DNA from: Candidatus Saccharimonadota bacterium | GTDB taxonomy: Bacteria; Patescibacteriota; Saccharimonadia; Saccharimonadales; Saccharimonadaceae | Length of the DNA stretch: 32,000 bases | NCBI GenBank assembly: GCA_000503915.1 | Contig: CP006915.1 | Span: 60,001 to 92,000, forward strand | Direction: 5' to 3' | In this document: positions 23,226 to 24,499 of the stretch, piece after piece | Layout: each line of letters starts with the position of its first letter | How positions within the stretch are numbered: position 1 is the stretch's first letter | Notes under the pieces: generated by a model | What the model was told of the DNA's origin: nothing | The model's database searches: none | Seen by the model: only the letters and a program-made list of their open reading frames with translations | Position numbers and translations under genes: made by a program

Positions 23226-23254
23226 TTGGAAACTTCTACTTTACGTACTCTTTT

Positions 23255-23343
23255 ATTGTACGTACCGAGCAAACCAGTAAAGGTCGTTCGTACTCTGGTA
23301 AACGTCAGGTGCGCTCCACCTTGACAGGCTTGCCTTGCGGTAC
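23255..23343 (+). repeat. Conserved 5' structured element, copy 1
   Basis: Shares an ATTGTACG block and a core with identical blocks of 12, 12 and 15 nt (23280-23325) with copy 2. The core is enclosed by stems GTACCG/CGGTAC and GCAA/TTGC. Confidence 0.7.
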
Positions 23344-23382
23344 CGTCAGCAGACTCCGTTACGTAAAGTAAAGGAGAAAGAA

Positions 23383-23676
23383 ATGACAAACGTAGCTCAA
23401 GCAACACAAACTGTAGCCACCGAGTACAACGGGTGGAGTAACCGAGAGACGTGGATAGCGAATCTCTGGCTCAACAACGACGAGTACAGTTACGACGTAC
23501 TCTGCAAGGCACTCAGAATCGACGGTGAGGTCATCGACCAAGCCGACTGGGTAGAACAGCATCTGCGCTGGCAGCTAGACGGCGAGATCGACGAGGCTTG
23601 TCTGTGGCAAGACCTACTCCGATGCGCCTTTGAGCGGATCAATTGGGTTGAGGTAATCGAAAAGAATACCGATTAG
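23383..23676 (+). CDS. Small phage/plasmid-type hypothetical protein (NGWSNRETW...LW motif)
   Basis: AAGGAG Shine-Dalgarno sequence at 23371-23376. I recall the N-terminal GW-x-N-x-ETW pattern from phage and plasmid accessory proteins. I cannot name the family with confidence. Confidence 0.6.
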   Translation: MTNVAQATQTVATEYNGWSNRETWIANLWLNNDEYSYDVLCKALRIDGEVIDQADWVEQHLRWQLDGEIDEACLWQDLLRCAFERINWVEVIEKNTD

Positions 23677-23681
23677 CCGAG

Positions 23682-23709
23682 CCGTCCTGAGCATGACGCT
23701 AAACTGCTC
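23682..23709 (+). repeat. Conserved 3' motif, copy 1
   Basis: CCGTCCTGAGCATGACGCTAAACTGCTC begins 5 nt after the stop codon and matches 24818-24845 at 24 of 28 positions. Confidence 0.6.
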
Positions 23710-23743
23710 TTAAAGCTATGCAGCACGAAAGGTGTTCCTCAGA

Positions 23744-24307
23744 CTATTGCTCCGTGAAAGGAGCTAGTATCTCGTCAGCATCGAGACCAGCTTGCATCAG
23801 GTAGCCGTAGGCAGTTTCAAACGCTTCATCAAATGGTAGTACGGCTATCTCAGCTCGGGTTTCAGGGTCAAGGCCGTCATCCTCGAATGGCGCAAGTGCA
23901 TCGGCAATCTCAGAGCTAGCTAACAGTTCAGCCGCAACCTCGTCCATACCCATGTTCTCGGCATATTCTGCTGCATTTTTGAGATCCTCTAGGGCAAGAT
24001 CAACCTTGCCGATATCTCGTCGTAGCGTTGCAGTAGCAATGATTAGGCCGATTTGCGCTGCTGCATAGGCTGAGCCTTGCTGTTGATCGACAATGGCTTC
24101 GCCTTGTGTTTGGTATTGTTCAGTAAGCAAGCGAATCGCTTCTTCGTCCCCGCGTTCATTTGCCTCAATAAGTGCACTGCGAAGTTGGCCTAGTTCGGCC
24201 GTTTCAATAAAACCGAGTTTTCCTGCAAGAGCCTCAAAACCTTCTTGCGATTGCGTTTCTTGTTCAGCTGACTGTGGTAATTGTTCCGGGAAGTTACCTT
24301 GTTCCAT
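23744..24307 (-). CDS. Highly acidic hypothetical protein (187 aa from ATG 24307)
   Basis: By my count about 40 D/E versus 9 K/R. Start moved to MEQGNF because upstream codons overlap the conserved repeat and TGGTATAAT lies 6 nt upstream. Confidence 0.55.
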   Translation of the reverse strand: MEQGNFPEQLPQSAEQETQSQEGFEALAGKLGFIETAELGQLRSALIEANERGDEEAIRLLTEQYQTQGEAIVDQQQGSAYAAAQIGLIIATATLRRDIGKVDLALEDLKNAAEYAENMGMDEVAAELLASSEIADALAPFEDDGLDPETRAEIAVLPFDEAFETAYGYLMQAGLDADEILAPFTEQ

Positions 24308-24313
24308 AATCCG

Positions 24314-24322
24314 ATTATACCA
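24314..24322 (-). promoter_or_regulatory. Extended -10 (TGGTATAAT) 6 nt upstream of ATG 24307
   Basis: The minus strand reads TGG TATAAT CGGATT ATG. This is a leaderless-type arrangement. Confidence 0.45.
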
Positions 24323-24355
24323 AATATGAAAGAGTCTTCCTCCCTCTGTCTTCTC

Positions 24356-24447
24356 ATTGTACGGGTGAACGAACCGCATCAAGGTCGTTCGTCCCATTGG
24401 TAAACGTCAAGGGGCGCTCCACCTTGACCCAGTTCGTCGCAGCCCGT
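24356..24447 (+). repeat. Conserved 5' structured element, copy 2
   Basis: Same ATTGTACG block and core (24381-24428) as copy 1. It is enclosed by different but complementary stems, ACGGG/CCCGT and ACGAAC/GTTCGT. Confidence 0.7.
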
Positions 24448-24499
24448 CGCCCTCTGACAGAGAGGCAGGAAGTCCTCTCGATAAAGCAAGGAGGGTTCT

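Follow-up and report, generated by a model that had tools for sequence, protein, structure and literature searches.

What is the structured element that stands, twice within 1.1 kb, ahead of two unrelated small genes, and which strand carries its fold? The question is raised by a 32,000-nucleotide stretch of DNA (the window, G000:C1:60001-92000) in the single-contig 845-kb genome of a Saccharibacteria bacterium, where both copies of the element lie in a 19.8-kb mobile island. The original prediction had offered three candidate roles: a regulator in the 5′ untranslated region (5′-UTR), a single-strand promoter or initiation signal, and a recombination site. Our analysis favours the second of these, disfavours the first and finds the third unsupported. 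The conserved fold, the folding strand, the sequences and positions of the promoter-like boxes, the coupling to small genes and the mobile-element context were all computed directly. On this basis each copy is probably a hairpin of single-stranded DNA that acts as a promoter or initiation site, possibly also in priming, and that would be a functional analogue of the Frpo elements of the F plasmid rather than a homologue in sequence.

A family of conserved hairpins ahead of small genes

Both copies were matched by covariance model (CM) R1 of the family described below. The element copies, their closing helices and the genes behind them are the following:

23236–23371, minus strand: element copy 1 (CM R1 match of 82 bits, E = 4e-18)
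23280–23322: P3 of copy 1, which closes the apical module (AAGGT at 23280–84 with ACCTT at 23318–22)
23383–23676, plus strand: DUF7249 gene behind copy 1, 97 aa (Pfam PF23907, E = 3e-11)
24336–24472, minus strand: element copy 2, with the architecture of copy 1 (CM R1 match of 127 bits, E = 1e-29)
24379–24427: P3 and apical module of copy 2 (TCAAGGT at 24379–85 with ACCTTGA at 24421–27)
24473–24495, plus strand: small leader hairpin of the DUF3768 gene, in which UCCUCU pairs with the Shine-Dalgarno sequence GGAGGG through plus-strand G–U pairs
24500–24811, plus strand: DUF3768 gene behind copy 2, 103 aa (Pfam PF12599, E = 7e-22)

All coordinates and strings that the original prediction had given for the two copies match the sequence. 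The copies share a ATTGTACG block (23255–62 in copy 1 and 24356–63 in copy 2) and three identical runs, AAGGTCGTTCGT (12 nt; 23280–91 and 24381–92), TGGTAAACGTCA (12 nt; 23296–307 and 24398–409) and GCGCTCCACCTTGAC (15 nt; 23311–25 and 24414–28). In a search of the 845-kb genome the core matches itself with an E-value of 5.6e-9, and exactly two copies are present there. The enclosing helices had been claimed to differ between the copies and yet to stay complementary, and all of them are found in the sequence: GTACCG/CGGTAC, GCAA/TTGC and ACTTTACGTA/TACGTAAAGT in copy 1, and ACGGG/CCCGT, ACGAAC/GTTCGT and the imperfect CCCTCTGTC/GACAGAGAGG in copy 2. The outer pairing of each copy terminates right before its Shine-Dalgarno sequence, as had been described.

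Each copy folds as one long imperfect hairpin, with z-scores of -3.0 (copy 1) and -5.0 (copy 2) against dinucleotide shuffles. Copy 1 consists of an outer stem P1 (23238–47 with 23360–69), an internal loop, a second stem P2, the conserved stem P3 and an apex of type A. P1 of copy 2 is formed by CTTCCTCCCTCTGTC (24336–50) and GACAGAGAGGCAGGAAG (24456–72). One part of the proposed structure has to be revised. The inner hairpin GTCA(A)GG/CCTTGAC, which had been described within the core, is a feature of one apex type only and is absent from apex types A′, B and C; the conserved helix is instead formed by (T)CAAGGT with ACCTTG(A).

The family to which the two copies belong numbers at least 45 elements and is found in Saccharibacteria and other Patescibacteria. 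BLAST with copy 2 gave matches in 21 of 401 genomes of the same order. A CM built from 15 members gave matches in 19 of 151 genomes of the order and in four genomes from other orders, the latter in a sample of 151 genomes from the phylum that includes the window's own genome and some genomes of its own order. Such a patchy distribution fits the expectation for mobile DNA. From the outside in, the members have a P1 of 10–20 bp, the internal loop, P2, a near-invariant P3 and an apex of one of several types, from 6 to ~60 nt in length.

Pairs were counted in an alignment of 39 distinct full-length members, which are the 39 members referred to throughout. Standard pairs are formed by 88.4% of cells, compared to 68% with shuffled partners and 32–39% when the partners are slid by 1–3 columns, and compensatory changes on both sides are seen in 19 of the 25 pairs (161 cells); these counts come from a model-fitted alignment and carry a bias towards structure, which has to be set against them, but the margin over the controls is large despite this. 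Compensatory variants of P3 can also be read from the raw sequences, where AAGGT/ACCTT is replaced in relatives by AATAT/ATATT or AATGT/ACATT. The covariation in 19 of 25 pairs agrees with the earlier proposal of a folded single strand in place of a simple operator, and the check that had been suggested for it, a covariance model followed by a homologue search, shows that more homologues exist and that they covary.

Rfam returned only a tRNA at the gathering score, and nothing relevant at E ≤ 5 over 23200–24520. BLAST of the window element against the plasmid collection gave no match, a literature search with the core sequence strings returned unrelated primers only, and a description of the family was not found in the literature searched. 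Draft contigs often end inside or beside the hairpin (L009, L015, L024, L026, L051 and L052), which suggests that several near-identical copies per genome break the assemblies.

The folding strand and its promoter-like boxes

Which strand, then, carries the fold? Both strands of each member were folded over identical coordinates. In 38 of the 39 members the minus strand, antisense to the downstream gene and thus its template, folds more stably than the mRNA strand does, with a mean advantage of 9.7 kcal/mol under RNA parameters and 4.4 kcal/mol under DNA parameters. For the window copies the DNA parameters give -24.2 kcal/mol for the minus strand compared to -19.9 for the plus strand (copy 1) and -28.2 compared to -24.3 (copy 2). 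The minus-strand folds contain 209 G–T pairs and the plus-strand folds 118, an excess that is the signature expected of selection on the minus strand. Base composition does not explain the greater stability, since the plus-strand G+T content is 0.49. A narrower count over the 25 model pairs is weaker (49 C–A cells and 36 G–T cells on the plus strand), and it is biased to plus-strand wobble because the pairs were derived from the plus-strand consensus. In all six held-out members, which come from other orders and lie outside the model, the minus strand is again the stabler one under DNA parameters. By these predicted stabilities, the strand that folds is the minus strand.

This preference counts against a structured RNA in the 5′-UTR, in which the plus strand would be co-transcribed with the gene and would regulate its translation or stability. 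The plus-strand RNA folds too (-47.6 and -67.9 kcal/mol), the outer stem ends beside the Shine-Dalgarno sequence, and in the DUF3768 leader the small downstream hairpin sequesters that sequence by means of plus-strand G–U pairs, all of which would suit a translational regulator. However, the plus-strand folds hold only about half as many wobble pairs as those of the minus strand, and no conserved promoter is present upstream of the hairpin from which such an RNA could be made. The upstream flanks are unrelated to each other, and in the window they are occupied by the starts of divergent genes. One element moreover serves five unrelated gene families, and Rfam holds no match to it. Taken together, these points make a 5′-UTR regulator highly improbable.

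The original prediction had also reported that no -10 box could be found. This holds for the plus strand: a consensus scan of both intergenic regions revealed no conventional promoter for the two plus-strand genes. A plus-strand -10 candidate upstream of P1 (TATATT in copy 1, TAGACT in type-B relatives) was considered and rejected, as its occurrence is at chance level across the family; TAnnnT is found upstream of P1 in 20 of the 39 members, at scattered positions, which is about what chance gives at 64% A+T. On the minus strand, TACAAT is present in both copies. It had been missed because the box is the minus-strand reverse complement of the conserved ATTGTA block. The boxes, and the transcription starts predicted from them, are:

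23255–23260, minus strand: -10-like box TACAAT of copy 1, on the 3′ arm where P2 meets the internal loop
23276–23281, minus strand: -35-like box TTTACT of copy 1, upstream of TACAAT by a 15-nt spacer
23358–23361 (~23359), plus strand: predicted start of the DUF7249 mRNA, placed 7 nt beyond the -10 box, where P1 has its inner end
24356–24361, minus strand: -10-like box TACAAT of copy 2, in an 11-nt loop that faces a 9-nt loop on the template arm
24377–24382, minus strand: -35-like box TTGATG of copy 2, with a 15-nt spacer
24456–24459 (A at 24457), plus strand: predicted start of the DUF3768 mRNA, placed by the same geometry

A hexamer of the form TA-N-A-[A/C]-T is present in all 39 members (TACAAT in 12, TATACT in 10, TACACT in 8, TATAAT in 7, and TAGAAT and TAAACT in one each). 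Variation is confined to positions 3 and 5, which leaves 1, 2, 4 and 6 invariant. In sigma-70 -10 boxes positions 3 and 5 are among the less conserved ones, a profile that the hexamer of the family resembles. The hexamer occupies the minus strand's 3′ arm, which serves as non-template side when transcription leaves the hairpin for the gene and is the place that a hairpin promoter requires for it. P2 stops at this hexamer. Many folds, among them the minimum free energy (MFE) fold of copy 1, pair its first T and leave the five bases after it unpaired, and in 24 of the 39 MFE folds five or more of the six box bases are unpaired. The junction between duplex and single strand falls at -12/-11 and is followed by an open loop of ~8–14 nt (11 nt in the commonest class), which in these predicted folds resembles a pre-melted transcription bubble.

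The -35-like box is TTGNNN in most members, for example TTGATG, TTGATA, TTGACG or TTGCCA, and lies inside the P3 stem. The spacer between the two boxes is 15 nt in 30 members and 16 nt in eight of the 39. Five of the six held-out members have TTGNNN-16/17-TA...T at the same junction. Five of the six also have a called downstream open reading frame (ORF) that bears conserved DUF3768 sequence motifs, the assignment being made by these motifs and not by a Pfam scan; no ORF was called in the held-out locus L186. The predicted leaders would be ~22–25 nt long for DUF7249, with the Shine-Dalgarno sequence AAGGAG, and ~43 nt for DUF3768.

Could the boxes work in duplex DNA instead? The divergent genes would then be transcribed leftward from an ordinary promoter made up of TACAAT and TTGATG, with the palindromic core serving as operator of an island repressor. 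Both window copies do lie in divergent intergenic regions, and the island encodes LexA-like and XRE-type regulators. An operator, however, needs no covariation over ~50 base pairs, and a 15-nt spacer is poor for a duplex promoter. The divergent genes also have -10 boxes of their own near the ATG. The T5orf172 gene (23211, minus strand) has TATAAT at 23220–23225, followed by N8-ATG, and the gene of an acidic 187-aa protein (24307, minus strand) has TGGTATAAT at 24314–24322, followed by N6-ATG. Neither has a Shine-Dalgarno sequence, and on sequence grounds this suggests that the mRNAs of the divergent genes may be leaderless. In at least five loci (L006, L010, L011, L014 and L020) the upstream gene is co-directional and ends right before the hairpin, so that a leftward promoter would be antisense to it. 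The boxes belonging to the divergent genes and the co-directional upstream genes together imply that the -10-like box is not simply a divergent promoter. We regard a duplex regulatory region as a most improbable account of the element.

The single-strand promoter that we favour would work as follows; polymerase binding, the start site, activity in the single strand only and the minus strand as the entering strand are what we infer here. The 19.8-kb island would exist in single-stranded form, and conjugative mobilization into a new cell is the most plausible way for this to arise. Its minus strand, the template of the DUF7249 and DUF3768 genes, would fold into a hairpin of ~125 nt in which P2 and P3 rebuild a duplex that bears the TTG... 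-35-like box. P2 would end exactly at -12/-11 of TACAAT, and the remainder of the box would be left unpaired in the internal loop, like a pre-opened bubble. Host RNA polymerase could then bind, start at the inner end of P1 and read the 5′ arm outward into the gene. The resulting mRNA would begin 22–45 nt before the start codon and would contain the Shine-Dalgarno sequence but not the hairpin's left arm. Synthesis of the complementary strand would then remove the hairpin, and the leftward pair of boxes, with its 15-nt spacer, would be a poor promoter, leaving both genes silent.

The mobile island, the downstream genes and relatives in other phyla

Does the setting of the element fit such a role? 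At least five unrelated small gene families stand behind it: DUF3768, DUF7249, DUF2958 and two orphan ORFs. The orientation of the element relative to the gene is constant, and the start codon lies 15–59 nt past the hairpin in the 39 members. In loci with two copies (the window, L004, L019, L067, L077 and L099) the copies are always co-oriented. The sequence of P1 tracks the family of the downstream gene, which implies that hairpin and gene travel together. The small leader hairpin at 24473–24495 is kept in the DUF3768-type leaders of relatives and is probably a separate control on translation.

No PDB relatives were found for DUF3768 or DUF7249. DUF3768 is encoded on 319 plasmids, 197 of them typed as conjugative. 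Two plasmid records were inspected. The co-oriented neighbours of DUF3768 are a zincin-like (ArdC-type) peptidase, ParB and Fic in one record and SSB (a protein that binds single-stranded DNA), ParB and an orphan methylase in the other, and these genes are typical of leading regions. The CM gave no match on two DUF3768-bearing alphaproteobacterial plasmids. On the Sphingobium plasmid pF3 (L053:8662-8992) the template strand upstream of DUF3768 folds over ~115 nt (z = -3.7); this hairpin is unrelated in sequence to the family, has no clear promoter boxes and is suggestive only.

The island is delimited by att repeats at 7790–7808 and 27557–27575 that match at 18 of 19 positions, and it carries two serine recombinases, located at its ends, and several defence genes. 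The proteins that bear on its transfer are:

10619–12991, plus strand: VirD4/TraG-like coupling protein (Pfam TrwB_AAD_bind, T4SS-DNA_transf and TraG-D_C)
24844–25572, minus strand: winged-helix protein of 242 aa, of the Replic_Relax (MOBC relaxase) kind, adjoining the DUF3768 gene
25879–27597, plus strand: large serine recombinase at the island's right end, adjoining the tRNA att site

Homologues of the coupling protein occur in other hairpin-bearing loci, and homologues of the 242-aa protein stand beside hairpins in at least 16 loci, three of them passing the cut-off of PF13814 (Replic_Relax). PF13814 corresponds to the MOBC relaxase superfamily, and the streptococcal IME_Class_8 combines a VirD4 coupling protein, a MOBC relaxase and a serine integrase (PMC5357655). 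The island is best read as an integrative mobilizable element (IME), because its gene set matches that of this class. A perfect 18-bp palindrome, TCTAATTTCGAAATTAGA, lies at 25637–25654 between the relaxase-like and serine recombinase genes. It is a candidate operator or repeat of an origin of transfer (oriT), and the sole oriT candidate seen. The host genome has ComEC and DprA, and it encodes a second, 936-aa protein (L058; G000:C1:436507-439632) with 36% identity over 416 aa to the island coupling protein.

Relatives of the apical module are found well beyond the Patescibacteria. The pattern CAAGGT-N-GT...CTCCACCTTG was scanned in one genome per species (loci L060–L139), and only matches confirmed by the CM were counted, because about 500 chance matches are expected by our own estimate. 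Related hairpins occur in Actinomycetota, Verrucomicrobiota, Eremiobacterota, Clostridia, Planctomycetales and one gammaproteobacterial metagenome-assembled genome. The module caps long hairpins, for example L062:699-750, L097:733-852, L076:44-146 and those in L104, L103 and L093, and many relatives keep TTGNNN-15/16-(T/C)A.A.T on the corresponding arm:

L097: TTGACG-15-TACAAT
L104: TTGACA-15-TACAAT
L076: TTGCTT-15-TATCAT
Five actinobacterial and planctomycete loci: TTGNNN-16-CACACT

The actinobacterial version is present on 47 plasmids. In the Pseudonocardia plasmid NZ_CP053565.1 (L191:4900-5060) about six tandem 12-nt iterons, CCTGGGTCGATC, abut a related hairpin that has TTGACG-16-CACACT and, in P3, the compensatory pairing AACGT/ACGTT, a setting that resembles a replication origin or a site of priming. 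A related module is found near rep in an Aeromonas plasmid, and in a MOBF Streptomyces plasmid a related hairpin lies 59 nt before a small gene.

Besides the structural bias of the alignment, several of these observations weigh against a single-strand promoter. The spacer of 15–16 nt falls short of the canonical 17. For the window's own 242-aa protein, which does not itself pass the Pfam Replic_Relax cut-off, the relaxase-like call rests on transitive homology. The host genome has no Pfam match for VirB4, Relaxase or MobA_MobL and thus gives no sign of a helper transfer system. In the Streptomyces/Micromonospora class the module is shared but no -10-like box is present; these hairpins have a perfect outer stem of 26 bp, with GCTCGGCT where the box would be. 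Some plasmid modules stand beside iterons or rep and not at a gene start, which points to priming, and four actinobacterial copies lie downstream of IS110-family transposase genes. Finally, the extreme conservation of the G+C-rich apical module is unexplained by a promoter model; the cross-phylum pattern of the module implies a constraint beyond that of a simple promoter. A priming role is possible alongside mRNA synthesis or, in some contexts, instead of it.

Priming and promoter roles are compatible, and the true rival is therefore an element that does nothing but prime: a single-strand origin (sso/ssi) at which recruited RNA polymerase or a primase would lay down a short primer for the complementary strand after transfer or rolling-circle replication, with the nearby genes incidental. 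Origins of the ssoA type likewise fold on one strand and have promoter-like boxes, and the iterons of the Pseudonocardia plasmid and the rep gene of the Aeromonas plasmid would suit this role. Frpo itself was found as a priming signal (PMC12672017). For the Patescibacteria, however, all 39 hairpins end 15–59 nt before a start codon that bears a Shine-Dalgarno sequence, with transcription predicted to run into the gene, and the window's two copies, 1.1 kb apart, each have a gene of their own. The CS-6 motif that ssoA carries in its terminal loop, TAGCG[T/A], is absent from both copies on both strands. We consider an element with a priming role only to be unlikely.

The IS110-linked relatives raise the question of whether the element is itself mobile or a site of recombination, such as an insertion resembling a miniature inverted-repeat transposable element (MITE), a target or guide RNA of an IS110/IS1111 recombinase, or an attC-like site; a bridge or seek RNA would be expected within the insertion sequence, beside a DEDD transposase gene. 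In four actinobacterial loci (L109:1409-2554, L060:4951-6320, L124:3873-5246 and L075) the hairpin has the orientation of the transposase gene and lies 60–400 nt downstream of it, where it could be a 3′ non-coding RNA of the IS1111 type, a preferred target or a coincidence. That the conserved core sits within stems of unrelated sequence, and that contigs frequently break at the element, would agree with mobility. Yet tblastn with an IS110-type transposase over loci L004–L139 gave these four actinobacterial loci and no locus from Patescibacteria, and the attC core sites R″/R′ (RYYYAAC / GTTRRRY), which belong at the base of such a hairpin, are found in neither copy on either strand. The only recombinase genes found in the window are the two serine ones; no Rci or Phage_integrase (tyrosine recombinase) domain was found among the 27 window ORFs scanned with Pfam, a scan made with no separate search for IntI. 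The outer stem tracks the gene family, so that hairpin and gene evolve as a unit, and the promoter-like boxes and fixed orientation would be left unexplained. A recombination site or mobile element is thus very unlikely.

We suggest more tentatively, with confidence short of even, that the hairpins are an undescribed class of single-stranded-DNA promoter or initiation element that spans several phyla and has as its hallmarks the apical module CAAGGT-N-GT...CTCCACCTTG and a pre-opened loop that holds the -10 box. If this is true, the hairpin would mark early-expressed genes (leading-region and probably anti-defence genes) in Patescibacteria, Verrucomicrobiota, Clostridia and probably Actinomycetota, and the apical module would be a DNA structure that recruits polymerase or primase, more than a hairpin cap. 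The class would also supply the first evidence that zygotic induction follows the entry of single-stranded DNA in bacteria of the Candidate Phyla Radiation (CPR), and would imply that the mobile islands of these ultra-small bacteria enter as single strands and run a timed expression programme. A family that is compact and backed by covariation offers a searchable signature for early-expressed genes, one that makes DUF3768, DUF7249 and DUF2958 candidate establishment or anti-defence proteins. The fork junction at -12/-11 together with a pre-melted -10 box may represent a minimal promoter architecture.

Comparison with known single-strand systems

How do the hairpins compare with structures known to act on one strand? 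With integron attC sites they share an imperfect one-strand hairpin between small promoterless genes. Conservation is inverted here, however, with a conserved centre and a variable base, and the element stands upstream of its gene whereas attC stands downstream. With ssoA-type origins of rolling-circle plasmids they share an orientation-specific hairpin on one strand and promoter-like boxes, which in ssoA are recognised by the RNA polymerase of the host. Unlike in ssoA, where transcription runs towards the loop, it is predicted here to run outward into a gene, and the hairpin is tightly coupled to a Shine-Dalgarno sequence and start codon.

To our knowledge, enterobacterial IncF and IncI plasmids are the only carriers in which experiments have demonstrated single-stranded-DNA promoters. 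The usual routes to such promoters are similarity and ad hoc mining for hairpins, and the Frpo segment is far longer than the ~125 nt of the present elements. Frpo1 and Frpo2 of the F plasmid are 92% identical and form two hairpins upstream of different leading genes; as single strands they fold up, and the stem-loops so formed restore -35 and -10 boxes; early expression in transconjugants depends on them, and conversion to duplex DNA shuts them off (PMC9849209). Plasmids pESBL and F carry three sequence-unrelated classes of such promoters, confirmed by 5′ rapid amplification of cDNA ends (RACE), in a study that mined hairpins with a 300-nt window (PMC12672017). Candidates have been proposed in other leading regions (PMC11541004).

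The family is not homologous to Frpo, because CM R1 has no match on the F leading region (best E-value of 1.6 over 48–68 kb of F with the filters off). Further differences are the short length of the hairpin, the position of the -10 box in a defined internal loop with the stem junction at -12/-11, the spacer of 15–16 nt, and the G+C-rich apical module that is conserved across phyla. The host is also a CPR bacterium, and the carrier is an integrative mobilizable element instead of a plasmid.

The likenesses concern position and anatomy. As with Frpo1/Frpo2 and with ssi1-3 of ColIb-P9/pESBL, which make up class 1, and with the class 2 and 3 promoters of pESBL, the elements are non-coding and lie upstream of small genes on a putatively transferable element, several homologous and co-oriented copies stand ahead of different genes, and activity would be expected to cease once the DNA is double-stranded. 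The leading genes of the F plasmid all point towards oriT, and the present elements call for this arrangement if it is the minus strand that is transferred. In its template-strand fold, a large stem-loop that rebuilds the -35 and -10 boxes, the family has the anatomy of the Frpo/ssi functional class.

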